The notes under the pieces are model-generated. The model saw only the letters and a list, made by a program, of their open reading frames with translations. It made no database searches and was not told the origin of the DNA. Source: an uncultured archaeon (lineage in GTDB: Archaea > Asgardarchaeota > Heimdallarchaeia > Heimdallarchaeales > Kariarchaeaceae). Taken from it: DNA of 23,561 nt. The stretch lies in the NCBI GenBank assembly GCA_964645535.1, contig CAZYCQ010000051.1:1-23561 (forward strand), given 5' to 3'. Shown here piece after piece: positions 253 through 23,519 of this stretch (positions are counted from its first letter, which is position 1; every line of letters starts with the position of its first letter). Position numbers and translations under genes: made by a program.

Positions 253-1620
253 ATGGAATTTTACTATTTCTCCTATGGAATCAATATGGCTAAGCGGGTA
301 ATCGAAGCAAGAGGGCTTAATTTTAAATTCGTCTCATTGGGAATACTGCGCGACCATAGAATTGCATTCCATCGGTATTCCAGTGAATGGAATGGATTGA
401 CTGCAAATTTGGAGGTCAAAAGAGGATCTGAAGCATATGGGGTAATATTTCTTACAGATGAACAGGATCTGGAAAAACTGGATATATTTGAGGGAGTGGA
501 TCGTGGAGAAGCAGACAGAACACAGGTTCAGGTTCATCCAAGCAATTCCAAAATTCTTGATGAGCCCATTACTTGCTACACCTATATTCGCAATAGTCCA
601 GACCCAGATGTAGGGAATTTTTCGTTGAATTATCTAACAATTCTTCTGGAAAGCTACAAGGAGTATGGATTTCCAAAACACCTAATTAGAATCATTGAGG
701 ACAGGTTAGACAGAACCTTCATTGTTGATCGAACCCGTAAACGAAGAAGGGCAAGCACAAAAGGGAAATACCTGATTCAGATCGATAAAACAAGTTTAGA
801 CAAGCTTGACCTCAAAGAGGGACAGGACATTGTTGTCGGATACAAAAAACAATATGCCCCTGCCAGAATCCAAGGATTGGAAGGAGAGGAAAACCAAAAG
901 ATCTGCCGTTTGGACAAATCAATCAGAAATGTTTTGGGATTGGAGGAAATGACCCTTCAGAGGGCGACAGTTACGATTTATCCGGTTAAGTTCGAGACAG
1001 TCGATGAAAAGACTGGATGGGATCGAGCAATACAAGTCATCTCCCTCATCGTTTCCATTGTTTTTTTTATTTGGATGCCGTACCTATTGATCAAGAAACG
1101 GATCTATCCTCGAACATTTCTTCTTAAGGTTCAAAGGTTGAAATCGGATATTGTCGAGAAGAATGTTGCGATCGTTCCTAAACAATACTTGAAATTGATT
1201 GGATTGGAGGAAGGAAAATTCATTGACATAGAGGTTCCAGTTTATGCAGATGACCTGTTTGTTTTACGAAGACTCACCATCAGGGCATTCAGTGACGAAA
1301 ATATCGAAAAGGAAGAACAAATGAAATCTCAGCGGATTTATTTGGACGGAACCACTCGAGATCTATTAGGATTACCATACACAATTCCTGATGAAGAATT
1401 TCCATTTGCAGAAATCACCCCGAATCTCAATGCCTTGCTTGCGGAAAGAGGAATTCTGTATCTTGCAACCATTCTGTTTTTGATCGGCAGATTTCAGACT
1501 CTATTGATTAATTTCGGTAGACCCAATGCCTTATTGGACTTCTGGATTTCCGTAGTCCTGTCCATCTGGTTCATAGGGATTGTCGTCTATTTTGAAATGA
1601 AAAACAAGATCAGATATTGA
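253..1620 (+). CDS. Gamma-glutamylcyclotransferase (GGCT/AIG2-like) domain fused to two double-psi beta-barrel-like domains and membrane segments
   Basis: N-terminal YFSYGINM, A-Y-G-V-I-F, LDIFEG (putative catalytic Glu80) and SLNYLTILLESYKEYGFP fit the GGCT fold. aa ~155-245 and ~285-390 resemble CDC48/VAT N-domain barrels. Hydrophobic segments at aa ~260-280, ~401-419 and ~427-447. Confidence 0.75.
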   Translation: MEFYYFSYGINMAKRVIEARGLNFKFVSLGILRDHRIAFHRYSSEWNGLTANLEVKRGSEAYGVIFLTDEQDLEKLDIFEGVDRGEADRTQVQVHPSNSKILDEPITCYTYIRNSPDPDVGNFSLNYLTILLESYKEYGFPKHLIRIIEDRLDRTFIVDRTRKRRRASTKGKYLIQIDKTSLDKLDLKEGQDIVVGYKKQYAPARIQGLEGEENQKICRLDKSIRNVLGLEEMTLQRATVTIYPVKFETVDEKTGWDRAIQVISLIVSIVFFIWMPYLLIKKRIYPRTFLLKVQRLKSDIVEKNVAIVPKQYLKLIGLEEGKFIDIEVPVYADDLFVLRRLTIRAFSDENIEKEEQMKSQRIYLDGTTRDLLGLPYTIPDEEFPFAEITPNLNALLAERGILYLATILFLIGRFQTLLINFGRPNALLDFWISVVLSIWFIGIVVYFEMKNKIRY

Positions 1621-1677: not shown

Positions 1678-2535
1678 ATGCGTGAAATCAAGAAGATTCT
1701 GGTACTTGGTCTTGGCACAATGGGAAACGGTATTGCCCATGTTGCCGCACAAGGAGGATATGAAGTCGTAGCTTACGACATCAAGCAAGAGTTTTTGGAC
1801 AGGGGAGTAGCCACCATCAGGAAGAACCTGAGTAGGGGACTCAAAAAAGGGAAAATTACGGAGGAAGAGATTGAAAAAATCATGGCAAGAATATCTACAT
1901 CCACTGATTTAGAAAAGGCAGCAGAGGGAGTGGACTTTGTCATCGAAGCGGTCTATGAAAACCTTGAAGTGAAGGTTGACTTGTTCCAGCGACTAAACAA
2001 GGTACTCCCAGAAGATGTCATCTTTGCTTCGAATACCTCATCAATTTCCATTTCTCTTCTTGCAGGAAGTTCTGGACGACCTGAACGGTTCATTGGAATG
2101 CATTTCTTCAATCCAGTCCCTGTCATGAAACTGGTGGAAATTATTCGAGGGATATTGACGACTGATGAAACATATGAAGTTACCAAGCAAATCGCAGAGA
2201 AAATGGGGAAGGAAACCATTGTAGCAAAAGACAGTCCGGGATTTGTGGTCAATAGGATACTGGTCCCTATGCTTAATGAGGCAGTATTTGCCTATTCAGA
2301 GGGATTGGCAACCGCAGAGGACATTGATAAGGGAATGGTGCTAGGCACAAACATGCCGATTGGTCCCTTGGCATTATTGGACCTGATTGGATTGGATACA
2401 GCTTTGATGGTCTCAGATGAATTCTATAAGCAATTCCAGGACAGCAAATACAGGGTTCCTCCACTCATGAGACAGATGGTTGCCTCAGGCCTTCTTGGAA
2501 GAAAGTCGGGAAGAGGGTTCTACAAGTATGACTAA
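1678..2535 (+). CDS. hbd: 3-hydroxybutyryl-CoA / 3-hydroxyacyl-CoA dehydrogenase
   Basis: Rossmann GLGTMGNG, IEAVYEN, ASNTSSIS, GMHFFNPVPVMKLVE, PGFVVNR, DLIGLD, LGRKSGRGFY; 285 aa. Confidence 0.95.
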   Translation: MREIKKILVLGLGTMGNGIAHVAAQGGYEVVAYDIKQEFLDRGVATIRKNLSRGLKKGKITEEEIEKIMARISTSTDLEKAAEGVDFVIEAVYENLEVKVDLFQRLNKVLPEDVIFASNTSSISISLLAGSSGRPERFIGMHFFNPVPVMKLVEIIRGILTTDETYEVTKQIAEKMGKETIVAKDSPGFVVNRILVPMLNEAVFAYSEGLATAEDIDKGMVLGTNMPIGPLALLDLIGLDTALMVSDEFYKQFQDSKYRVPPLMRQMVASGLLGRKSGRGFYKYD

Positions 2536-5476: not shown

Positions 5477-5980
5477 ATGGGTAAGCTAGTAGAAAAGCCA
5501 CCCCTTACCTTCAATGAAGGATTGCTTAAAGAAATTGACCTCAAAATTGTCAGTTTCAGCCGAAAATATGAGGATAGATTCGTTCGTTGGGCCATGGGAA
5601 TAGTTTTTATTTGGTTTGGCATTCTCAAGCCATTGGGAGTGAGCCCCGCAGAAGGCATTGTCAGCAAAACGAGCAGTATGGTTCTTCCATTTGTCAATCC
5701 ACAAGCCATGGTTTGGTTTTTAGGTATTTACGAAGTTTTAATCGGTTTGTTTTTGATCATCAAGCAATTAAACCGTTTAGGTATTCTGATGCTGGCATTT
5801 CAAATGCCTGCCACAATGTTGCCACTTCTCTTGTTCCCTGAAGAAACATTCACACACATCCCATGGGGATTGACTCTTGAAGGGCAATACATTGTCAAAA
5901 ATTTTGTTCTCATGGCAGCAGCCATAGTAATTGCAGGAAGAGTGAGGGAATCAGAGGGAGAAGAGAAAATCGAGAATTGA
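5477..5980 (+). CDS. DoxX / YkgB(RclC)-like membrane protein
   Basis: RWAMGIVFIWFGILK, GIYEVLIG and LTLEGQYIVKNFVL motifs; about 4 TM helices. Confidence 0.8.
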   Translation: MGKLVEKPPLTFNEGLLKEIDLKIVSFSRKYEDRFVRWAMGIVFIWFGILKPLGVSPAEGIVSKTSSMVLPFVNPQAMVWFLGIYEVLIGLFLIIKQLNRLGILMLAFQMPATMLPLLLFPEETFTHIPWGLTLEGQYIVKNFVLMAAAIVIAGRVRESEGEEKIEN

Positions 5981-6793
5981 GTTCCAGACATATCCGTCAT
6001 TTCGTTCCTTGTTTTCAAAATTCTGTATGTGAAGCCATTGGATGAAGGCAGGAATGATTTCATCTATGTTCTCAGGTTTCCTTTCAAGGAAATGTATTTC
6101 GTAGAGCTTTTCTCCGATTTTCCAATAGAGGTCATCAGTGAGTTTGGTAATATCGTTGGGATCCTCTCTTTCCAAAAGAGTAAGAGAATAGAGGTCAAAT
6201 ACCCGTCTAAGTTCAAAAGTCGCATTGGGATGATCATCCACCCTCACATCTACGTAAATATCACTTCCATCATAACCGCTCCCTTTTTTCAGAATCTTTA
6301 AGTGAGCAGATTGTTGCCCACGTTTGTCACCACCGGCCTTTTGTCCGGACTCAAGTGCACACATCAATTTCTCTGCCAGATCCCCATCTGTTTTCAAGAA
6401 GGTGTCAAGCATCTTTTCCACGACTTCTTCCCCCACCAGAATATTTCCTTGAACTGCTACAGCTTCTGCGGTTTTTCCTCCAGCCCAAGGATAACAGTCG
6501 GAACCGGTAAACGACACGCTGTTGCCCTTGAGATCAACGATTCCAACCTGCCTTTGGCTGTTAAGAGGGTCATTTTCTAGAAGAATGTCCAACGTCTGTC
6601 TTGCTGTTGCTCCACTTGCAAGAAGTTTCAGGCCTTGGGTTCCATAGCGTATATTTGCCAAAGCCTGTGTGGCAATTGCCCCACCATCCAAGGAAATCCA
6701 CGGAACAATGGAACCGACGGCAGGAAATTTGCTTTGCACTGCAATTCCAAGTTCACCTGTTTCCTTATCCAATGCAATGATCGAAAAGGTCAT
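5951..6793 (-). CDS. DUF1028-family Ntn-hydrolase-like protein with small C-terminal helical domain
   Basis: MTFSIIA..GIAVQSKFPAVG, GAIATQA, RQVGIVD, QGNIL, GGDKRGQQSA, DVRVDDH; the N-terminal Thr would be exposed after Met removal. Confidence 0.9.
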   Translation of the reverse strand: MTFSIIALDKETGELGIAVQSKFPAVGSIVPWISLDGGAIATQALANIRYGTQGLKLLASGATARQTLDILLENDPLNSQRQVGIVDLKGNSVSFTGSDCYPWAGGKTAEAVAVQGNILVGEEVVEKMLDTFLKTDGDLAEKLMCALESGQKAGGDKRGQQSAHLKILKKGSGYDGSDIYVDVRVDDHPNATFELRRVFDLYSLTLLEREDPNDITKLTDDLYWKIGEKLYEIHFLERKPENIDEIIPAFIQWLHIQNFENKERNDGYVWNSILDFLFSL

Positions 6794-8018: not shown

Positions 8019-8468
8019 TCAGTTTTTTGTCTGTTCCTGTTCACCTAACCTTTGGATTAGTTGGCTTAATCGTCCAAGGAGAGGCTGAACCTTGGATTCG
8101 AAATGAATGCTGATCTGATTCTGAATTGTTTCGGGAGTTATCCTTTCTTCTTTTTGTCGTTCTTCCTCTAACGCCTGGATTCTGGCACTTAACCCTTTGA
8201 TTTTGTTGTCTAGTTCATTGATCTTGTCCTCAAATTGCGAAGAAGTGTTAAGTTCACTGGTGATTTCAGAAATCGCCAGTTTCTGGGACATTTCATCATC
8301 GTGTACATACCCTCGATCCAGATAAATCTCGACAGCCCTATTGATTAGGTCTGTTGTAGTTGATCCCATGCGTGCAGCGGTCTGTTGCAATCTTTCCTTA
8401 AGCTTCTTATCGAACCAGAATGTTGTGGCCACTCGATCCTTTCGTCTTGTTGAAACCATCTCATTCAT
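8019..8468 (-). CDS. Ribbon-helix-helix (CopG/Arc-like) DNA-binding domain plus coiled-coil protein
   Basis: RVATTFWFDKKLKERLQQTAARMGSTTTDLINRAVEIYL fits the RHH strand-helix-helix pattern; heptad repeat in FEDKINELDNKIKGLSARIQALEEE. Start moved from 8624 to ATG 8468 (or 8459) because the longer version overlaps cysS. Confidence 0.7.
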   Translation of the reverse strand: MNEMVSTRRKDRVATTFWFDKKLKERLQQTAARMGSTTTDLINRAVEIYLDRGYVHDDEMSQKLAISEITSELNTSSQFEDKINELDNKIKGLSARIQALEEERQKEERITPETIQNQISIHFESKVQPLLGRLSQLIQRLGEQEQTKN

Positions 8469-8594
8469 ATTTGGGGCAACTGGTACAAAAATCTGTTGGA
8501 ATTTAGCCTGTATCTTCCTGCATTCGCAGTTGAACCTTGAAATGCCTTCTAAGATATGATTTATTAAATGCAAATTGCTAAGCTCATTCGACAG

Positions 8595-10046
8595 ATGGCA
8601 TCTAAAGACCACCCACAGACTCACATCGATCTTCAGATCTATGATTCACAGACACATTCAGTCAGGAAGTTTGAACCAATAGAACCTGGCTTAGTTAAGA
8701 TGTACGTGTGTGGTCCCACGGTTTATGATGATGCGCATGTCGGTCATGCACGAAGTCAAATCGTCTTCGACGTCATCAGAAGAGTGTTTGAGTATTTTGG
8801 GTATAGAGTTTTCTACGTTTCGAATTATACGGACATTGATGACAAAATGATCAATAGAGCCGCTGAAGAGGGCATCTCTGTTCAGGAACTGGCCAAGCGC
8901 ATCATTCGGAGTGTAGAGGATGATTTCAGGAGCTTGAACATACAGCCACCGACTGTTCGGCCGAAGGCAACGGAACATATAGACGGGATGGTACAGATAG
9001 TTCAGGGTCTTATCAACAAGGGATATGCATATGCGAAGGATAGTGGAGTCTATTTCAGGGTTCAATCATTTCCGGGATACGGAACCATGACGAATTTCAA
9101 ACTGGAGGATTCTCAATCGACGGAGGATGATGGAAACCCCCTTGACAAGGAGCACCGTGCAGATTTCGCTTTGATGAAGAAATCAAAAGAGGGAGAACCC
9201 TTTTGGGAAACACCGTGGGGCAAGATGCGACCAGGGTGGCACATCGAATGTTCTGCGATGTCAATGCATTACCTGGGAGAAACCTTTGATATCCATGGTG
9301 GAGGGCAAGACTTGGCCTTTCCGCACCATGTCAATGAGATTGCCCAATCAGAAGCATACACAGGGAAAAAATTTTCGAACTTTTTCATTCATCATGGCTT
9401 TTTGACGACCAACAAAGAAAAGATGAGTAAAAGTCTCAAGAACTTCTTTACCATCAAAGACGTTCTGAAGAAATATGATGGGGATACTTTGAGATTCTTT
9501 ATGCTTCAAGCCCATTACAGGAAACCTTTGGAGTATGCAACCGAAGGCCTTGAAGAAGCCCAAGTCCAAGTGAAGAAATTCAAGACAACTTTGGAACAGA
9601 TAGAGGCTGCATCCAAGCGAAAGGGAAGCTTTGAGAAAATCGAGGACATGGAACAATTGGCGGTTAAGGCAGTCAAATTCGAGATGGAGTTTGTCAAAGC
9701 ATTAGCAAATGACTTCAACACACCCGACGCCCTTTCTACACTCTATGCGTTCCAGAAAGAGATCAATAAGGTACAACGGAAGGTTGCAGACATAGATGGC
9801 ACTTTTTGGGGAGACATTGTCGCAAGATTCAAACGAATGTTACGGGTTTTAGGTCTTTCATTTGCAGAAGGACAGGTTTCAGAGGATTCACTGTCAACTG
9901 AATTAATGGATCTAATAATCAATATTCGACAGGAAGCCAGAAAGAGAAAAGATTGGGAAACTGCAGATCAGATAAGAGATCAACTTAAAGAGATCGGAAT
10001 TGTTCTTGAGGATGTTAAAGGGCAGACCGTCTGGAAAAAAGCATAG
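8595..10046 (+). CDS. cysS: Cysteine--tRNA ligase (class I)
   Basis: [14 protein letters not shown] (HIGH motif), [54 protein letters not shown] 8595 preferred over 8568. Confidence 0.98.
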
Positions 10047-15852: not shown

Positions 15853-17925
15853 ATGAAGCCTTTCTTAAGTCAACATCAAGCCCAAGCGCTTTTTTCTCCG
15901 CGGGGCATTGCAATAGCAGGGGTCAGCAGAAATCCTTCATCCTTGGGCAGAAAAGTTTTGGGAAATTTGATAAAGTCGGGATATAAGGGTGAAATTTACG
16001 TTCTTCATCCAAAAGCAAGGGAAATCGATGGCATTCCAGCATTTCGTAATTTGGGTGATATTGAAGGAAGCGTCGATATGGTCGTCAGTCTCATTCCGAG
16101 GGAAGGGGTCAAGAATTTGGCAGAAGCCTGTGTCAAAAGGAATGTTCCGATATTGGTTGTCATTTCTGCTGGTTTCAGCGAAGTTGGCAAGGAAGGTGAA
16201 CAATTGGAACGTGATCTAATAAATTTTGCAGAAGAAAATGGACTTCGGATCATAGGTCCCAATTCAATGGGGGTATACAGTGGGGTTGGCCATCAAGGAA
16301 ATCAAATGGACGTGACATTTACACCAATTCAACCGATGAAGGGTAACTTGGCATTTCTTTCACAATCAGGAGCAATTGGAGCAGTAATGGCCAATCATGC
16401 CAACCAATTGGGGCAGGGGTTTTCAAGGTTCATATCTTTGGGAAACAAGCCGGATATTGACGAAAATGTGTTACTTGAATTTCTGAAAAATGATTCTGAA
16501 ACAGACATTATAGCGTTATATTTGGAATCCTTTACGGATGGTCGAATGTTCATTGATAAATGCAGGGAAATTTCAATATCAAAGCCGATTTTGGCGGTTA
16601 AAAGTGGTCGAACAGAAGCAGGAGCACGGGCTGCGGCGTCCCACACAGGAGCACTTGCCACATCGGATACCATTGTTGAATCGGTTTTTCTTCAATCGGG
16701 AGTAATAAGAGCCAATGACATTGCAGAACTGGCAAATATGGCATATGGACTTTCTAAACTCCAACCAATGCAAGGAAGGAATGTAGCCGTCATTTCAAAT
16801 GCTGGAGGTCCTGGAACCATCCAAACGGATGAATTAGAAGCAATGGGTCTCAAAGTCATGCCAATATCGGAAAAAACCAGGAATCAATTGAAAACCTTTC
16901 TTCCAAGGGAAGCAAGTATTGGAAACCCTATAGACATCCTTCCTTCGGCTTCACCGGATGTTTATCGGCAAACTGTACAAACAGTCCTAGATTCAGAAGA
17001 CGTCAATGCCGTAGTTGTCCTCATCCTTCCACCTGTCCTATTTCCAATTGATGAGATGCTTGATGGGATACGGCAAGTCAATGCTGCAAAGCCATTGATC
17101 GTGGTTGCCATGGGCTGTGAAGGCTTGATCCAAAACATTGCTGATTTTCCGTTTCCAATATTCCACTTACCAAGGGAAGCAGCAATAGTATTGAAAGGCG
17201 CCTATCTTTTCCAGCAATTTCAAACAAGAAGGTATGTCCAAACAGAGACACCACATCCCTCAGGCATCCTGAAATCATGTGATTCTGGATGGTTAAATCA
17301 GGAAACCATTGAAAAATTGATGCAAACATATGATATTCTATTGGCAAAACAAGAAGTAATTGAAAACCGGTCTGAATTGAAAGAGGTATTTGAGAGAATG
17401 GCAAAACCGCTTGTTCTCAAACTTCTTTCAGACAAGCTTGTACATAAAAGTGACGCAGGAGGTGTTATCACAGGAATAAAAAGTTTTGAAGAATTGAGGG
17501 AGGGTTTTGAGGAACTTGAAAGATTGGTAGAAAACAAAGGAATTGAGGATGGAAAGTATTTGGTGCAGGAACAATTGGATAATGAAATCGAAATTGTCAT
17601 AGGAGGTGTAAGGGATCCACAGTTTGGTCCTTTGGTCATGGTTGGAACAGGAGGCATTTTCATTGAACTGATTAAGGATGCAAAGTTTCACATTGCCCCT
17701 CTTTCAGAAAAAGAAGCTATGAATCTTATTGAACAAACGAATCTAGGCATGATTTTGGAAGGCTATCGAGGAAGAAGATCGGTGGATAAAAGAAATTTGG
17801 CAAAACTGATCATGAAAATCGGGGATATGTTGTACAATGAGGAAAACATCAAAGAATTAGATTTGAATCCTGTCCTTGTTCATAATGATGAATTGATACC
17901 TGTAGATATCCGCATTAGAATCTAA
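15853..17925 (+). CDS. ADP-forming acyl-CoA synthetase (ACD), alpha-beta fusion
   Basis: CoA-binding domain (GVSRNPSSLG, ISAGFSE, IIGPNSMG), SQSGAI, SLGNKPD, ASHTGALA (alpha His), SNAGGPG, NPIDI; ATP-grasp part with VHKSDAGGV (beta His), DPQFGPLVMVGTGG, ELDLNP. No GNAT domain. Confidence 0.93.
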   Translation: MKPFLSQHQAQALFSPRGIAIAGVSRNPSSLGRKVLGNLIKSGYKGEIYVLHPKAREIDGIPAFRNLGDIEGSVDMVVSLIPREGVKNLAEACVKRNVPILVVISAGFSEVGKEGEQLERDLINFAEENGLRIIGPNSMGVYSGVGHQGNQMDVTFTPIQPMKGNLAFLSQSGAIGAVMANHANQLGQGFSRFISLGNKPDIDENVLLEFLKNDSETDIIALYLESFTDGRMFIDKCREISISKPILAVKSGRTEAGARAAASHTGALATSDTIVESVFLQSGVIRANDIAELANMAYGLSKLQPMQGRNVAVISNAGGPGTIQTDELEAMGLKVMPISEKTRNQLKTFLPREASIGNPIDILPSASPDVYRQTVQTVLDSEDVNAVVVLILPPVLFPIDEMLDGIRQVNAAKPLIVVAMGCEGLIQNIADFPFPIFHLPREAAIVLKGAYLFQQFQTRRYVQTETPHPSGILKSCDSGWLNQETIEKLMQTYDILLAKQEVIENRSELKEVFERMAKPLVLKLLSDKLVHKSDAGGVITGIKSFEELREGFEELERLVENKGIEDGKYLVQEQLDNEIEIVIGGVRDPQFGPLVMVGTGGIFIELIKDAKFHIAPLSEKEAMNLIEQTNLGMILEGYRGRRSVDKRNLAKLIMKIGDMLYNEENIKELDLNPVLVHNDELIPVDIRIRI

Positions 17926-18457: not shown

Positions 18458-20293
18458 ATGCCAGCTATCGATGCAGTCCAAACTAACCAACCAAAATCCG
18501 AGAAAAAGTTTATGCTTCTGGGAAATGAAGCAGTGGCTCTCGGATTGATTGACGAGGGGGCAAATTATTTTACAGGATATCCAGGAACCCCTTCAACCGA
18601 GATCATGGAATATGCTCTCAAACTGAAGGAAAAGGAGGGGATTTTTGCTCATTGGGGAACAAACGAGGCTGCTGCACTTGAGGATGCAGCGGCAGCGGCC
18701 ATTTCCGGCCATTATGCAGTCTTCACTGCCAAGCATGTCGGTTTGAATGTGGCTGCCGATCCATTTGTTTCATTGGCAACCATGGGGATCAGAGGCGGGC
18801 TGGTTCTATGCATTTCTGACGATCCATCCATGCACTCCAGCCAGAATGAGCAGGATACACGGTGGTATGGAAGATTGGCACATGTTCCCATTATTGAGCC
18901 GACAGACCCCTCAAATGCCTACTATTGGGCAAGGGAAGCAATGAAGCTGAGTATAGAAACCAAACTTCCAGTAATCCTTAGATTGACAACAAGGATTTCA
19001 CATGGATTGGGAACTATTGAAAGAGCTGAAAAAACCAAAAGAAAACCACTCCCCTATGAGCGAGATGTCGAAAGGTTTGTTTCCATCCCGGCTCACGCAA
19101 GGAAAAATAAACTGAGGCAAAATGAGGCATTTGATTACGCAAGGCAAATCAGTGATTCTCCCCAATTTGTAAAGTTGCTTGAGGGAAACGATCCTGAATT
19201 CGGAGTAATCTCATCAGGGATAGCTGCAAGTTATTGCGAAGACCTTTGGCAGGAATACCATTTCAATCTGTTGATTCCACATGTAACCCATCCACTACCA
19301 AGAGAGCAGGTTTTGAACTTTTTAAAAGGTAAAAGAAGGGTTTTGATAGTTGAAGAACTTGATGAAGTGCTTGAGACAGACATCAAGAAACTTGCCTTTG
19401 AAGCAAATCTTTCAATCACCGTTGTCGGGAAAGAGATGATACCCAAGGATTATGAACTTAATCCAAACATAGTCGAGAATACACTTCGCGAACTCATGGG
19501 ATTTCCAGTTGATGAAAATCATTTCATTGAACTCCCATTGGAATCCCTTCTTCCCCGACCGCCTTCCTTCTGTGCAGGATGTCCACATAGAGCAGCCTAT
19601 TATGACCTCAAACGGGCTTTTAAGAATGTAGAGACGATTTATTCAAATGATATCGGATGTTATTCTCTTGGAGCTCTACCCCCTTACAATGAAGCGGATT
19701 CCATTCTCTGCATGGGAGCAAGTATAGGAATGGCAGTTGGATATGCCAAAACCAATCCCGACAAAAAGGTCATTGCAACTATTGGGGATTCAACCTTCTG
19801 GCATTCAGGAATTGCCGCATTGGCCAATGCCATCTGGCAGGATGTGGATTTGCTGGTTGTTGTCTTGGACAATTCCACCACTGCGATGACAGGTACCCAA
19901 GAAAACCCGTCAACCCATGGCAAGTTGAATATTGCAAAAACAATTCAGGGAATGGGGATTCCTGCGTTTGAACTTTCGGCTTTTGAATACAAGGAATTCA
20001 TTGATCTTGCAAGAAGACTGATCAAACTTCCCGGAGTTAAAGCCATTGTTTCAAAACAACCCTGTGTGATCTATGAGAACCATGAAATGAAAAAGCAGAA
20101 TCTTAAGCCGAAAGGCTATGTGGAGGTTGACCATGAGAAATGCACATTATGCGGTCTCTGTGTGGAAGGACTAAACTGTACAGCACTAAGCCTTGTAGAC
20201 GGAAAAATCGAGGTGGATATCGCACAGTGCAATGGCTGTGAATTTTGTTCGACAATATGTCCCAGAGATGCATTTCATTTGAAGGAGGTTTGA
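18458..20293 (+). CDS. iorA: Indolepyruvate:ferredoxin oxidoreductase, alpha subunit
   Basis: LLGNEAVA, GYPGTPSTE, KHVGLNVAAD, DDPSMHSSQNEQD, RPPSFCAGCPHR, DIGCYSL, TPP motif GDSTFWHSG...DNSTTAMTG, two C-terminal 4Fe-4S motifs. Confidence 0.96.
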   Translation: MPAIDAVQTNQPKSEKKFMLLGNEAVALGLIDEGANYFTGYPGTPSTEIMEYALKLKEKEGIFAHWGTNEAAALEDAAAAAISGHYAVFTAKHVGLNVAADPFVSLATMGIRGGLVLCISDDPSMHSSQNEQDTRWYGRLAHVPIIEPTDPSNAYYWAREAMKLSIETKLPVILRLTTRISHGLGTIERAEKTKRKPLPYERDVERFVSIPAHARKNKLRQNEAFDYARQISDSPQFVKLLEGNDPEFGVISSGIAASYCEDLWQEYHFNLLIPHVTHPLPREQVLNFLKGKRRVLIVEELDEVLETDIKKLAFEANLSITVVGKEMIPKDYELNPNIVENTLRELMGFPVDENHFIELPLESLLPRPPSFCAGCPHRAAYYDLKRAFKNVETIYSNDIGCYSLGALPPYNEADSILCMGASIGMAVGYAKTNPDKKVIATIGDSTFWHSGIAALANAIWQDVDLLVVVLDNSTTAMTGTQENPSTHGKLNIAKTIQGMGIPAFELSAFEYKEFIDLARRLIKLPGVKAIVSKQPCVIYENHEMKKQNLKPKGYVEVDHEKCTLCGLCVEGLNCTALSLVDGKIEVDIAQCNGCEFCSTICPRDAFHLKEV

Positions 20294-20295
20294 GG

Positions 20296-20913
20296 ATGTC
20301 AGAAATGAAACCAGCTCAAAAAACATTGCAAATTCAATTGGCAGGTGTAGGAGGACAGGGAATTATCAGTGTTGGGAGACTACTCCTTGCTGTTGGACAG
20401 GATAATGGATTTGAGGTCAAAGGAAACGAAACTCATGGAATGAGTCAAAGAGGAGGGTCAGTAGTCTTTCAGGTTCGCATCGGGAATTTCAAGGGCGTAC
20501 TAATACCCGATGGAGAAGCAGACGTGATTCTTGCAACTGAACCAATGGAAGCAGTTCGAAACCTTAATATCCTTAAGAAAGGAGGCATAATCATCACGGA
20601 CACTCACCATGTGATTCCAGCAATAGCCAATGTATTGGATAAACCCTATCCTGATGATGAACTCCTTTATCAAACCATGAAGAAAAAGACAGACAAGATT
20701 TACAAGGTTCCTGCCAGGGAAATTGCAGAGAGGATTGGGAATATCAAAGGAGCCAACCTTGTTCTTCTTGGCGCATTGGTTGAAATAACGAAGTTTTTTG
20801 ATCCTCTTGCTTTTGAGAAGAGAATTGCTGAAAAATGGCCTAAAGTCAAGGAAAAGAATCTTGAAGCGTTTAGAAAAGGAATGGAGTTCGCAATGAAATT
20901 GAAGCTTCAGTGA
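20296..20913 (+). CDS. iorB: Indolepyruvate:ferredoxin oxidoreductase, beta subunit
   Basis: AGVGGQG, ETHGMSQRGGSV, GEADVILATEPMEAVR, NLVLLGA, NLEAFRKG. ATG 20296 lies 2 nt after the iorA stop, with GGAGG at 20284-20288. Confidence 0.95.
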   Translation: MSEMKPAQKTLQIQLAGVGGQGIISVGRLLLAVGQDNGFEVKGNETHGMSQRGGSVVFQVRIGNFKGVLIPDGEADVILATEPMEAVRNLNILKKGGIIITDTHHVIPAIANVLDKPYPDDELLYQTMKKKTDKIYKVPAREIAERIGNIKGANLVLLGALVEITKFFDPLAFEKRIAEKWPKVKEKNLEAFRKGMEFAMKLKLQ

Positions 20914-23519
20914 TCCAACTCAATTTTTGGAAGGATTTTATCGAGCCATTTGGGTATCCACCAATTCCATTTTCCTGCAAGCCTCATGGCAGCAGGAAGG
21001 ATCATGACACGTGAAACAGTCGCATCAATGAAGATTGCCACAGCCATTGCCAATCCCATCGTCTTGAGGATAAGTATTGGGGATAATGCAAAAACTGCAA
21101 AGGTTGCAATCATGACGGTGGCTGCACTTGTGATAACGCCGGCAGTCTTGGAAAGACCTATGCTTACAGATTGGACATTGATTTCCTGTTGCGAATGTCC
21201 TCCTTCCTTTTGCAGTTTTTCAGTTTCCTCTTTTATTCTGGATATTATGAAAATCGAGTAATCCATACCTAAACCAAGGATAGTGGTGAAAAGGAAGATT
21301 GGAATGAAGAATGTAATTCCAGCAGGTTCGGCACCGAGCAGATCGACGAAGTTTCCTTCTTGGAACACAAACACCAAGGTTCCTATGCCGAAAAGGATTG
21401 AACCTGCTATTGTGACAATTGCCTTGATCGGTAAGATTATGCTTCTGAACAAAACCAACAGAGCAATGAAAAGAGCAATAACAGCAAAGGTCAGCATAAG
21501 GGGTACGTCATCAAACAATTCTTTTCTTGAGTCATAAAGTGAAGCGCTGGCACCGGTAACATAAACCGCTTTCACCGAATCGAGATCATCAAACATCTCA
21601 TGTGCCTTGTCGCGAAGTATTGAAGCCAATTCCAAAGCATCTCCAGAGCCAAAATCCAAATTCGACGTCAGATCCATGACAAGAGTGTCATTGCCATTGT
21701 TGTAATTGACGAATTTCCCGGTATTCTGAATGAAGAAAAGTTTTTGATAGTTTGGAACAGGTTGGAGAGTGTTGTTGGGGGGAACAGGCACCAAAAAGAA
21801 ATCAGGAGATGCAAGTATTTGTTGAACTTTTTCAAGAGACATTGTAACAAGATCTCCTGTTTCAGGATTGGTTTGCACGTTAAGCGTATCAAAAGTGAGG
21901 AAATTCAGAGTATGATGGTTCAATTGCCTTTTGTGTTCCAATTCCATTGCCCACCGTGCAAATTCAATTGTCCGGTTAAACAATTCGGAATTGAAAACAC
22001 CATTGGTTTTTCCTGTATCAATTACCACCTGATAAGGGGTCAATGTTCCCAAGTCAAATTTTTCGACAATGAATTCCAATCCTTCCCTAGATTCAGATCC
22101 TTTAGGAAGATTTTGGATACTGTCGAATGAAAGATCAGCTTGAAGTGACAAGGAGATAAAGGGAGCCAAAATAAGTAGGGAGAGAACCAAGAAAGAAACA
22201 GGCAATTTCATCACCAATCTTGACCAGCTCTCCCAAAATCCTTTTCGTATCTTTTGACCAGCACGCATCTTTTTGATTCGGGTAATTTCACGTTTTTGTC
22301 CGGAAAGGAAATCTGGCCAATCAAGGAAACGACCCCATTTTGCAAGGATTGCAGGAGTAAGGGTTACGGCAGTAAGAATTGAAAGAATGACTACAATCGA
22401 TACCCCAAAAGCCATTGATCTTGTCAAGGATGAATTTACGGTTGCCAAGGCCAGGAAACCGATAATGACGGCGATTCCCGAATAGGTAACCGCTTGACCA
22501 GATGTTCTTACCATGACACTTGCAGATTCTTTCTGAGCGTCCATCATGGTTCCTTTGTTCCAATTGGAGGAGGATTCAAGTGTGGCTTTTCGTTTTCTGT
22601 ATTCCTCACGGAACCGGATGATGCTGAACAGATTGTAGTCAACGGCAACCGCAATTCCAATCATTGCGATGATGCTCGGAAGAAAATCACTGACAGTAAT
22701 GATACCCCCAAGTGATAGAAGATAGGAACCGAAATAGGCACCGTATAGACTTCCCAAAAGGGCAACCATTGGAATTGCAACACCCATTGGGGATTTGAAT
22801 ACCAGTGCCAAGATAATGATTGCCAAAATTACAGAGACAACTTCAGATTCACGGAATGCCTTTTCACTGTTGTGTGTAATATCAACGAACTGTGCCGCCT
22901 CTCCGGTAAGGTAGTACTCATTGGCAGCAATCTCGGTTTCAGAAGCCAGCTCAATTGGAAATGATAGTCTTGCTAATTTTGAGTCAATATAGGAAGAAAT
23001 CGCATCTTCATCATGGAGGCTTTCACGAATCACCTCTACGTCGTCCAAAACCTCATCAGCAGATTTATTGGACGCCTGGATGTTTATCAGCGTGGTATGT
23101 CCATCCTCAGAGATGAGGGAAGAAGCAAAATCCCCAGCCCCGGCAAGAACAAGCAGGGGATAGGAGACAATTGAATAATACGTCATGGAATGGTTGTAGA
23201 AAGTATCATTCAGGTACTGTGTGAAATAAAGCAGCCAATTGGACCATTTTGCATCTGAAAAATTGGCAGATGGATTGTTGATGACAAGAATATGCGTAGT
23301 TCCTGTTTCATTTAGTTGGAAGCGTTCTTGGATGAGATTACTTCCAATACCACTTTCAGAAGTAGGTTCACCAAAGTCCCTTTCATTTTCTATTTGTGAA
23401 TTAAGCAATTGCGGTGCATTAGTACTTACCACAATTCCCACAATCAATAACCAAAGAAAAATAACAACTAAAGGATGGCGAGCAGGAAACGCAAGATTTC
23501 TTTTGTTTATCTGAGCCAT
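20907..23519 (-). CDS. MMPL-family RND transporter (about 12 TM)
   Basis: Two internal repeats, each with a porter loop and a TM bundle; Asp-Tyr motifs GIAVAVDYNLFSIIRFREE and GLGMDYSIFIISRIKEE; YLTGEAA / YVTGASA; IDATVSRVMILPA; GKWNWWIPKWL. Confidence 0.93.
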   Translation of the reverse strand: MAQINKRNLAFPARHPLVVIFLWLLIVGIVVSTNAPQLLNSQIENERDFGEPTSESGIGSNLIQERFQLNETGTTHILVINNPSANFSDAKWSNWLLYFTQYLNDTFYNHSMTYYSIVSYPLLVLAGAGDFASSLISEDGHTTLINIQASNKSADEVLDDVEVIRESLHDEDAISSYIDSKLARLSFPIELASETEIAANEYYLTGEAAQFVDITHNSEKAFRESEVVSVILAIIILALVFKSPMGVAIPMVALLGSLYGAYFGSYLLSLGGIITVSDFLPSIIAMIGIAVAVDYNLFSIIRFREEYRKRKATLESSSNWNKGTMMDAQKESASVMVRTSGQAVTYSGIAVIIGFLALATVNSSLTRSMAFGVSIVVILSILTAVTLTPAILAKWGRFLDWPDFLSGQKREITRIKKMRAGQKIRKGFWESWSRLVMKLPVSFLVLSLLILAPFISLSLQADLSFDSIQNLPKGSESREGLEFIVEKFDLGTLTPYQVVIDTGKTNGVFNSELFNRTIEFARWAMELEHKRQLNHHTLNFLTFDTLNVQTNPETGDLVTMSLEKVQQILASPDFFLVPVPPNNTLQPVPNYQKLFFIQNTGKFVNYNNGNDTLVMDLTSNLDFGSGDALELASILRDKAHEMFDDLDSVKAVYVTGASASLYDSRKELFDDVPLMLTFAVIALFIALLVLFRSIILPIKAIVTIAGSILFGIGTLVFVFQEGNFVDLLGAEPAGITFFIPIFLFTTILGLGMDYSIFIISRIKEETEKLQKEGGHSQQEINVQSVSIGLSKTAGVITSAATVMIATFAVFALSPILILKTMGLAMAVAIFIDATVSRVMILPAAMRLAGKWNWWIPKWLDKILPKIELDH

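Follow-up and report, generated by a model that had tools for sequence, protein, structure and literature searches.

A rare family of proteins joining a GGCT domain to tandem double-psi β-barrels and hydrophobic helices, found in an Asgard archaeon

P0001 is a real and intact Asgard archaeal gene that encodes a GGCT domain, two double-psi β-barrels, a middle helix and a C-terminal helical hairpin in a single chain (Table 1; positions refer to the window, the whole stretch of 23,561 nucleotides that was analysed). Sequence comparison indicates that this architecture is that of a whole, newly recognised family and not a one-off. The protein may well be a γ-glutamyl-cleaving enzyme that is anchored on the cytoplasmic side of the membrane and uses its barrels as a binding platform. 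The open reading frame starts with ATG and is uninterrupted, as judged from the ORF list and the translation, and a single copy was found in its own genome. All sequence features that a first-pass annotation had named in the 455-residue product are present. The model of the full-length protein has a pLDDT of 89.8 and a pTM of 0.85, while that of the C-terminal part (barrels and helices) has values of 88.5 and 0.85. Prediction of a homodimer from two copies of P0001 using alignment A1 gave a score of 0.01, which speaks neither for nor against a dimer.

Table 1. Features of the P0001 gene and its product.
Feature	Residues	Position in window	Strand	Basis
Whole gene, GGCT / barrel / helix / barrel / two-helix protein of 455 aa		253..1620 (including stop codon)	+	ORF list, translation
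GGCT domain of human GGCT/C7orf24 type	1–155	253..717	+	Pfam, structure match, family profile
Barrel 1 (double-psi β-barrel)	152–247	706..993	+	Pfam CDC48_N match below cut-off, VIA-align
Hydrophobic helix-kink-helix, Asgard-clade insert	255–283	1015..1101	+	Alignment, DSSP, hydropathy
Barrel 2 (double-psi β-barrel)	284–391	1102..1425	+	VIA-align, family profile
C-terminal hairpin, two hydrophobic helices and an acidic-basic tail ending in Tyr	392–455	1426..1617	+	Model, hydropathy

The N-terminal domain passes the cut-offs of two Pfam families, AIG2_2 (PF13772; 34.9 bits, cut-off 27) and GGACT (PF06094; 28.1 bits, cut-off 22.8), both of which are matched by 27 of the 30 aligned family members. 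Its model, with pLDDT values of 90–97 over residues 1–110, superposes on 3cry_A in VIA-align (Z = 20.5, rmsd 2.3, 154 aligned residues, 25% identity), and Foldseek gives E = 2.6e-12 with a TM of 0.73 by target. The family profile matches human GGCT with E = 2e-31. The LDIFEG motif noted earlier is indeed intact at residues 76–81, and Glu80 within it (codon at 490–492) aligns with the catalytic Glu98 of human GGCT, the residue that is mutated in 3cry. In the family profile this stretch reads LDkkEG; its aligned counterpart is LDEQEG in 2pn7 and LDEQQG in the E98Q entry 3cry. With both Pfam cut-offs passed, the fold of human GGCT matched and the catalytic glutamate kept, the original assignment of a GGCT-like N-terminal domain stands. 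The conservation of Glu80 in at least 90% of the 30 aligned family members argues for a working enzyme. The substrate loop of P0001 reads Y-F-S-Y-G-I-N-M where the family consensus is Y-F-A-Y-G-S-N-M, and the orthologues of P0001 have Ile or Val at the position of the serine. The Y-G-S-N loop binds via its backbone amides, so this replacement of Ser by Ile need not matter. In favour of such an enzyme, γ-glutamyl metabolism is represented elsewhere in the same genome by a gene homologous to GGT (E = 5e-156) and by one of the hydantoinase-B/oxoprolinase family (E = 6e-198).

Among proteins of known structure, human GGCT (C7orf24; 2pn7, 2rbh and 3cry) is matched in fold over residues 1–155 of P0001, and its Y-F-A-Y-G-S-N loop and L-D-x-x-E-G motif align with the family profile. 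The human enzyme is small and soluble with 188 amino acids, whereas the GGCT domain of P0001 forms the N-terminus of a 455-residue membrane protein and carries the altered loop. YkqA from Bacillus subtilis (2qik; Z = 19.4) likewise fuses a GGCT-fold domain to another domain, but its GGCT domain stands at the C-terminus (chain residues 127–275), and neither double-psi barrels nor membrane helices are present. ChaC, GGACT and BtrG have the fold of the same superfamily and are likewise cyclotransferases, but they match P0001 more poorly than does GGCT proper (ChaC2, Z = 16.3; GGACT 1vkb, Z = 12.5), and the ChaC Pfam family matches only three of the 30 family members. To our knowledge, all characterised enzymes of the GGCT superfamily, including ChaC, GGACT and BtrG, are soluble, and GGCT enzymes are small. 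A conserved membrane-tethered GGCT would thus imply a membrane-linked substrate or mode of regulation that has not been described.

The four related half-motifs that had been proposed to build two double-psi barrels are located at residues 175–195, 218–232, 306–326 and 362–376, and the models bear this proposal out: both barrels are predicted with high confidence and are of the Cdc48/VAT N-domain type (Z = 12–13). Barrel 1 superposes on residues 22–107 of the p97 N domain with Z = 12.4 and an rmsd of 1.7 over 85 residues in VIA-align and on CDC48A-N with Z = 13.3. Barrel 2 superposes on the DPBB domain of the Aeropyrum pernix VCP-like ATPase (7dg9; Z = 12.5, rmsd 1.9, 90 of 90 residues aligned) and on 5e7p_B (Z = 12.0), and designed DPBB proteins are found with the family profile in this region (E = 4e-8). 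The top matches of an independent wide structure search are DPBB-fold proteins only. At the sequence level, Pfam CDC48_N (PF02359) matches residues 170–230 of barrel 1 with E = 2e-6 and 28.3 bits, below the cut-off of 35.1; in the genome scan P0001 scores 18.4 bits. The same family is found in 16 of the 30 family members, and a relative with three barrels from genome G142 passes the cut-off with 70.4 bits.

The expectation that the barrels occur without an AAA ATPase was confirmed, as neither an AAA domain nor the β-clam CDC48_2 was matched in P0001 by Pfam even at E values up to 10. The genome contains three separate canonical ATPases of 734–792 amino acids with CDC48_N. Cdc48/p97/VAT N domains (7dg9, 7dbo, 3qc8 and 9uw1) share the fold of both barrels (rmsd 1.7–1.9), and sequence matches to CDC48_N are weak but specific, that of P0001 being below the Pfam cut-off. 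The Cdc48/VAT ATPases, however, consist of barrel, β-clam and AAA parts, whereas P0001 has two tandem barrels that lack clam and AAA, are tethered to the membrane and are joined to an enzyme. Tandem Cdc48-N-like domains in one chain are also seen in the N-terminal domains of Pex1 and Pex6 (8u0v, 8u0x and 1wlf), which provide the best match across both barrels of P0001 (119 residues, model range 1–239, Z = 11.0, rmsd 3.1). These proteins are soluble, contain an AAA ATPase part, have a barrel and a clam in each N domain and carry no attached enzyme. No solved structure spans the tandem barrels and the helices, the best covering one barrel or the 119 residues of Pex1/Pex6. As far as we know, barrels of the Cdc48 type occur almost only in AAA unfoldases, as the heads that bind substrates or adaptors. 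The tandem barrels described here, which have no ATPase but share a chain with an enzyme and a membrane anchor, would represent reuse of the barrel as an independent binding module, which bears on how the old DPBB fold spread.

There are exactly two copies of the 12-mer GGATTGGAGGAA in the window, at 937–948 and 1201–1212 as described before, against a chance expectation of 0.01, and two or more copies were obtained in none of 100 shuffles. Both copies encode G-L-E-E; that in barrel 1 lies in its second half and that in barrel 2 in its first half, and BLASTP finds no significant similarity between the two barrels (E = 0.26). Since the copies lie in non-equivalent halves of barrels that lack significant similarity, the 12-mer is not a marker of a recent internal duplication, and we discarded that explanation.

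Full-length orthologues with 75, 61 and 48% identity are present in independent assemblies from NCBI, from ENA and from Logan (three assemblies); those most similar to P0001 share synteny with it. One same-genus orthologue lies on contig 15 of genome G026, which is WAKA01000015 of GCA_015523565.1; this genome is listed among the representative Asgard genomes, in support of the Asgard origin of the gene. The analysis recovered about 70 sequence clusters in which a GGCT domain, two barrels and two helices follow one another and the chain ends in ...RY; the majority are metagenomic, and some at least are bacterial. The domain order is almost invariant, and family alignments A1 and A2 are collinear over the full length. 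The family-conserved residues are all found in P0001: Arg225, the ...RY tail and, in barrel 2, which holds most of the invariant positions, Leu291, Glu302, Gly317, Gly321, Arg344, Asp365 and Arg369. An HMM of the C-terminal part, which matches P0001 with E = 1.6e-83, matched 79 of the proteins collected for the analysis. A search for N-terminal partners had been suggested in the first-pass annotation; 74 of these 79 proteins carry a GGCT domain. A protein search with the corresponding profile gave no new N-terminal partners among the at least six matches listed. In the source databases, family members are labelled only 'gamma-glutamylcyclotransferase' or 'hypothetical'. Neither Pfam nor NCBIfam contains a family describing the GGCT–barrel–barrel–hairpin architecture, and a full-text literature search returned no relevant paper on a GGCT/double-psi barrel fusion, in line with the earlier view that the architecture is uncharacterised.

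The family is rare and patchy, with few members in Asgard archaea. A pattern search of species-representative genomes with P0001 gave no match. The same search with P0008 gave 19 loci, none of which matches the C-part HMM, so at these loci the GGCT part is present alone. The family profile found no member in five species-representative genomes or in 401 sampled Actinomycetota genomes, and plasmid and phage collections contained no full-length copy and only stand-alone GGCT genes. Relatives without a GGCT domain include P0007 (310 amino acids, same genus) and P0009 in another Asgard genome, and the G142 relative consists of three barrels and two helices. In the ESM Atlas, clusters of bacterial hypothetical proteins of 361–581 amino acids share the shape of the C-terminal part (TM 0.61–0.69). 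The existence of GGCT-less relatives means that the C-terminal part can function without the enzyme.

The hydrophobic helices are located where the initial annotation had placed them, one between the second and third motif and two at the C-terminus. Residues 262–280 form the most hydrophobic segment of P0001 (Kyte–Doolittle mean of 2.56 over 19 residues). Two further hydrophobic segments near residues 394–421 and 427–447 correspond to hairpin helices 400–420 and 426–453 in the model and are followed by a tail with the consensus D-L-R-x-K-x-R-Y that is conserved across the family. In the alignment, the middle helix is an insert of about 28 columns that is present only in P0001, P0004, P0005, P0006, P0007 and P0009. 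It is therefore a newly recognised insert specific to one Asgard clade, which has remodelled in this way a rare and patchy family common to bacteria and Asgard archaea. According to DSSP, both models contain a helix from residue 255 to 270 or 271, a break at 271–273 (W-M-P) and a second helix from 274 to 283. The rough insertion energy of the middle helix is −1.4 in P0001 and +5.1 in the GGCT-less paralogue P0007, where the homologous helix is too polar for a membrane span. The N-terminal flank of the helix contains two Lys/Arg and three Asp/Glu and the C-terminal flank five Lys/Arg and no Asp/Glu. Family members that lack the middle helix start with the enzyme, without a signal peptide, and end in a hairpin of two helices and a tail of basic character. 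Read by the positive-inside rule, the middle helix would fully cross the membrane and leave the N-terminal half of the protein outside; the helix-less members, the polar helix of P0007 and the W-M-P break in both models speak for a cytoplasmic arrangement.

In the mechanism that we propose, the hairpin would keep the soluble parts on the cytoplasmic membrane face, and the middle helix would most likely be a second anchor that dips into the membrane without crossing it. The GGCT domain would cleave a γ-glutamyl-amine or γ-glutamyl-amino-acid bond and cyclise the γ-glutamyl part to 5-oxoproline. The barrels of Cdc48/p97 are peptide- and adaptor-binding platforms. Those of P0001 may display a substrate or partner or hold the active site in position, and would thereby set the target or the timing of the enzyme.

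The loop change from Ser to Ile, the variable gene neighbourhoods, the hydrophobic middle helix with its basic C-terminal flank and the GGCT-less relatives all count against a membrane-held enzyme on the cytoplasmic side. Should the middle helix cross the membrane as a third span, the GGCT domain and barrel 1 would lie outside and barrel 2 inside, and the protein would act on extracellular γ-glutamyl compounds or signal across the membrane. The hydrophobicity, the insertion energy and the charge flanks of the helix agree with this arrangement, as do its 22 hydrophobic residues and the fact that proline kinks are common in membrane spans. It would, however, call for the export of a folded N-terminal half of 255 residues without a signal peptide, starting from an ancestral family form with all soluble parts on one side; the homologous P0007 helix is too polar to span, and in both models the helix is not straight but interrupted for two to three residues. 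We therefore consider a third span doubtful, if worth keeping in mind. Another reading takes the two barrels and the hairpin as the functional core, for example as a regulator or subunit in a transport process, with the GGCT part as an accessory or non-catalytic binding domain. P0007, whose gene is flanked by those of a DtxR-type repressor and a His-rich P-type ATPase, with an ABC-3 permease gene upstream, points in this direction, as do P0009, the three-barrel protein of G142 and the ESM Atlas clusters. This metal-gene context of P0007 is nevertheless a single instance, and the GGCT domain is kept in nearly all C-part matches together with its conserved catalytic glutamate, which makes this reading quite improbable. 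That the fusion is an artefact of assembly or gene calling can practically be dismissed. Nothing was found in its favour apart from G223, which at first looked like a split, two-gene form; there, the two ORFs are separated by a scaffold gap of 10 N inside the gene. The fused ORF is seen in at least five independent assemblies and in the roughly 70 family members, and the fusion is thus genuine and not the chimera that had been considered as a caveat.

The neighbourhoods, of which about six are readable, vary from member to member and give no support for a pathway. Some of them raise the possibility of a single-gene conflict or defence module, in which the barrels would sense a protein or peptide cue and either the GGCT domain would deplete a γ-glutamyl metabolite (a low-molecular-weight thiol, for instance) or the two helices would perturb the membrane, the Asgard copy deriving from a bacterial accessory gene. 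P0180 ends 2 nt before a SIR2–HerA pair (PADLOC model matches with E = 5e-141 and 8e-234), P0203 is found among resolvases, a HEPN_RES_NTD1/RES gene and a STAND-like NTPase, and P0161 adjoins a transposase; the rarity and patchiness of the family, with no member in the sampled Actinomycetota, fit such a module as well. Other members, however, are found beside ordinary genes (MscS, PAP2, FtsZ and Peptidase_M19), full-length copies are missing from the plasmid and phage collections, and P0001 itself sits among housekeeping genes and is kept across the species of its genus. PADLOC-DB 2.0 gave no match to P0001, P0008 or P0058 at E values up to 1; as this library dates from 2023, the result leaves room for an undescribed defence system. 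On balance we find a defence role unlikely. A related and rather improbable scenario is a one-protein membrane sensor–effector, in which a peptide or protein bound to the barrels would switch on the GGCT enzyme or the two-helix effector in a response of the abortive-infection or stress type. Such a gene would have moved between bacteria and Asgard archaea, and the third Asgard helix might put the enzyme and barrel 1 across the membrane.

Two candidate partners were rejected. The gene for a 3-hydroxyacyl-CoA dehydrogenase downstream of P0001 is not paired with it in G045 and G160 of the same genus. The two 300-residue proteins encoded downstream of GGCT-less forms are unrelated to each other, and the one from G142 matches the GGCT profile with a probability of 2%. 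P0001 is small and its models are of high confidence, and it should therefore be easy to express and test.

P0001, the protein encoded by the fusion gene, carries an LDIFEG motif, four half-motifs, one hydrophobic segment between the second and third of these and two further ones close to the C-terminus, all in the places where the first-pass annotation had put them (see the table). Both AIG2_2 and GGACT from Pfam match residues 5-143 above their curated cut-offs. With a 30-sequence family alignment as input, AlphaFold2 gave a model of high confidence along its whole length (mean pLDDT 89.8, pTM 0.85), and a separate model of residues 152-455 (the C-part) concurs with it (pLDDT 88.5, pTM 0.85). 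Among solved structures, the model matches human GGCT over residues 1-155 (3cry_A; Z 20.5, rmsd 2.3, 154 residues) and the double-psi barrel of the p97 N domain over residues 152-247 (Z 12.4, rmsd 1.7, 85 residues). Residues 284-391 superpose on 7dg9, the isolated DPBB domain of a VCP-like ATPase from Aeropyrum pernix (Z 12.5, rmsd 1.9, with all 90 residues aligned). The family profile also finds human GGCT by sequence (E 2e-31). The motif that contains Glu80 aligns with L-D-E-Q-E-G of human GGCT, the aligned glutamate being the catalytic Glu98, which is a glutamine in 3cry. The earlier structural reading of a GGCT-like domain followed by double-psi barrels is thus correct on all counts.

In a Foldseek-independent comparison of the C-part model with 48,161 chains, the top matches were exclusively double-psi-barrel proteins, among them Cdc48/p97/VAT, Pex1/Pex6, the AMP phosphorylase N domain, RNA polymerase barrels, molybdopterin-enzyme domains and expansins; no solved structure among these chains spans the tandem barrels plus helices. 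Within the GGCT superfamily the enzyme domain is closest to GGCT proper, and the barrels share the fold of the Cdc48/VAT N domain. P0001 is, however, not a Cdc48-type protein: it has neither the clam subdomain nor, as originally remarked, any AAA module, and the CDC48_N match to residues 170-230 (28.3 bits) falls under the Pfam cut-off of 35.1. Searches of NCBIfam and PADLOC gave no matches, and we found no name, family model or paper for the combined architecture, in line with the initial impression that it is uncharacterised. What emerges is a set of known domains in a conserved, uncharacterised, membrane-tethered arrangement.

A 12-mer reported to recur within the gene is indeed present in exactly two copies in the 23.5-kb window (0.01 expected). 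Both copies encode G-L-E-E but lie in non-equivalent barrel halves, and the two barrels show no significant BLASTP similarity (E 0.26). A recent internal duplication was rejected on these grounds, and the repeat is a coincidence of a common short motif.

The fusion is not confined to one assembly. Two contigs of the protein collection carry the identical protein, and full-length orthologues of 75%, 61% and 48% identity come from NCBI, ENA and three separate Logan assemblies, which removes the concern that the gene is a chimera. The closest orthologues keep the flanking order: an opposite-strand URO-D-like gene upstream, then the fusion, 3-hydroxyacyl-CoA dehydrogenase, NDK, RNase HII and alcohol dehydrogenase. 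Within the genus of the window, the fused gene occurs in three of four genomes (G000, G026 and G160), the fourth (G045) having a GGCT-less paralogue only; within the order the family is present in only 6 of 47 genomes. Contig 15 of G026 agrees in its coordinates with WAKA01000015 of GCA_015523565.1, and since a 2025-26 preprint counts this assembly as a representative Asgard genome, the window is of Asgard origin.

Beyond this clade, an exhaustive representative search returned many proteins of 420-470 residues that align with P0001 across both enzyme and C-part at 22-30% identity, and a profile search added 46 family clusters. The sources label these clusters no more specifically than 'gamma-glutamylcyclotransferase', 'ChaC' or 'hypothetical'; for one the label names a Solirubrobacteraceae MAG. 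The alignments are collinear end to end, with a consensus running from a Y-F-A-Y-G-S-N-M start through the catalytic E-G to barrel 1, then barrel 2 with its conserved D-S-E-K entry, the two-helix hairpin and a D-L-R-x-K-x-R-Y C-terminus. The GGCT domain is present in all but five of the 79 recovered proteins that match the C-part HMM. The family is at least partly bacterial, since the contig of one member carries a GGDEF gene, FtsZ and MipZ. It is rare, and was not found among 401 sampled Actinomycetota genomes or in plasmid and phage collections. Several Bacillus phages have annotated stand-alone GGCT genes, gp514 of phage G among them (phage records H17-H26); to our knowledge their role there is unstudied.

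That the fusion is almost constant and the catalytic glutamate conserved argues for an active enzyme whose job depends on both the barrels and its place at the membrane. We give an even chance to P0001 being a membrane-tethered gamma-glutamyl cyclotransferase with the barrels as a binding platform. GGCT chemistry requires a gamma-glutamyl group whose alpha-amine is free, so the likelier substrates are gamma-glutamyl amino acids, peptides or amines rather than protein isopeptides of the Pup/ubiquitin type. The genome (89% complete) encodes a GGT homologue, a hydantoinase-B/oxoprolinase-family protein and a second small GGACT protein, so that some gamma-glutamyl turnover is plausible; neither a GCS2-type ligase nor PxpA was found in it.

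Gene neighbourhoods of family members are no help in assigning function. Two or three of the six resemble mobile or defence regions, which keeps alive the alternative that the family is a conflict system. In particular, the genes next to P0180, a member on a metagenome contig, match the PADLOC SIR2-HerA models (E 5e-141 and 8e-234) and form a bona fide defence pair. The sample of six is small, however, and the Asgard copy lies amid housekeeping genes; we consider a conflict system improbable.

The tethering itself can be read in two ways. Residues 255-283 fall within an insert of about 28 alignment columns that is found only in the clade of P0001 (P0001, its fused relatives P0004, P0005 and P0006, and the GGCT-less P0007 and P0009), while a short polar linker joins the barrels in all other aligned members. 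In the C-part tree these six form one well-supported group (SH-aLRT 98) apart from the other 67 rows. The copy in G223, from another Asgard family, has no insert and nests among the other members (SH-aLRT 96). Its contig is 2.9 kb long and the genome is about 6% contaminated, which calls for caution: the copy may have been acquired separately or be a contaminant. What looked like a split into two genes was rejected, being a 10-N scaffold gap (L016 907-935). The lack of a signal peptide, the hairpin and the basic tail of the insert-less members fit a topology with all soluble parts in the cytoplasm. The insert is more hydrophobic than any other stretch of P0001 and has a strongly basic flank after it; read alone, it therefore looks like a true third span with the N-terminal half of the protein outside. 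Such a span would nevertheless need export of a folded 255-residue half that lacks a signal peptide. In addition, the homologous P0007 segment is too polar to cross a membrane (rough insertion energy +5.1 versus -1.4 in P0001), and in both models a break of 2-3 residues at W-M-P divides the helix into arms of about 16 and 10 residues. A third span is therefore rather unlikely, and we favour, with somewhat better than even confidence, a membrane-dipping second anchor.

GGCT-less relatives show that the barrel-hairpin module is able to stand alone. The P0007 gene is flanked by a DtxR/Fe_dep_repr-type regulator on one side and a His-rich P-type ATPase on the other, all on one strand, and lies downstream of an ABC-3 permease; in this single instance (G045) the module may be tied to metal homeostasis. 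P0009 comes from a second Asgard genome. A three-barrel protein of G142, from the same order, has neither enzyme domain nor AAA module and matches CDC48_N above the cut-off (E 1.5e-19), which shows that a wider 'barrels plus hairpin' module exists in Asgard archaea. Bacterial clusters in the ESM Atlas (361-581 residues) resemble the C-part in shape.

Coordinates of P0001 features, other genes of the window, family neighbourhoods and GGCT-less proteins
Feature	Location	Strand	Description
P0001 ORF	window 253..1620	+	ATG start, 455 residues
L-D-I-F-E-G motif	P0001 aa 76-81		position checked
Four half-motifs	P0001 aa 175-195, 218-232, 306-326, 362-376		positions checked
Segment between second and third half-motif	P0001 aa 262-280		strongly hydrophobic (hydropathy)
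3-Hydroxyacyl-CoA dehydrogenase	window 1678-2535
280-aa protein	window 5951-6793	-
201-aa ORF	window 8019-8624	-	no Pfam match
Cysteinyl-tRNA synthetase ORF	window 8568-10046	+
Fused ADP-forming acyl-CoA synthetase	window 15853-17925	+	690 aa; CoA_binding, Succ_CoA_lig, ATP-grasp_5 domains
TPP-dependent oxidoreductase-like gene	window 18458-20293	+	after acyl-CoA synthetase
MMPL-family transporter	window 20907-23519	-	870 aa; Pfam E 1.6e-64
Family neighbourhood 1			MscS, PAP2
Family neighbourhood 2			GGT fragment, LPG-synthase-like gene, FtsZ
Family neighbourhood 3			Peptidase_M19 immediately downstream
Family neighbourhood 4 (P0180)	L046 727-4852		member ends 2 nt before SIR2 gene, then HerA (DUF87)
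Family neighbourhood 5			resolvases, RES toxin gene, STAND-like NTPase
Family neighbourhood 6			transposase
P0007 with neighbouring genes (G045)	L004 149-3929		310 aa: barrel, helix, barrel, hairpin; no GGCT domain
Three-barrel protein (G142)	L052 715-1776		353 aa: three CDC48_N-type barrels, then two hydrophobic helices

Elsewhere in the window, the acyl-CoA synthetase, the TPP-dependent oxidoreductase-like gene and the 3-hydroxyacyl-CoA dehydrogenase suggest that this region contains genes for acyl-CoA fermentation. The MMPL-family transporter belongs to a type of exporter (MMPL/RND) best known in bacteria. The orthologue of the 280-residue protein in related contigs has DUF1028 and the peptidoglycan-binding domain PG_binding_2, which is odd in archaea, as these have no murein. 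The 201-residue ORF overlaps the listed start of the cysteinyl-tRNA synthetase ORF by 57 nt on the opposite strand, and one of the two starts was probably called too early.
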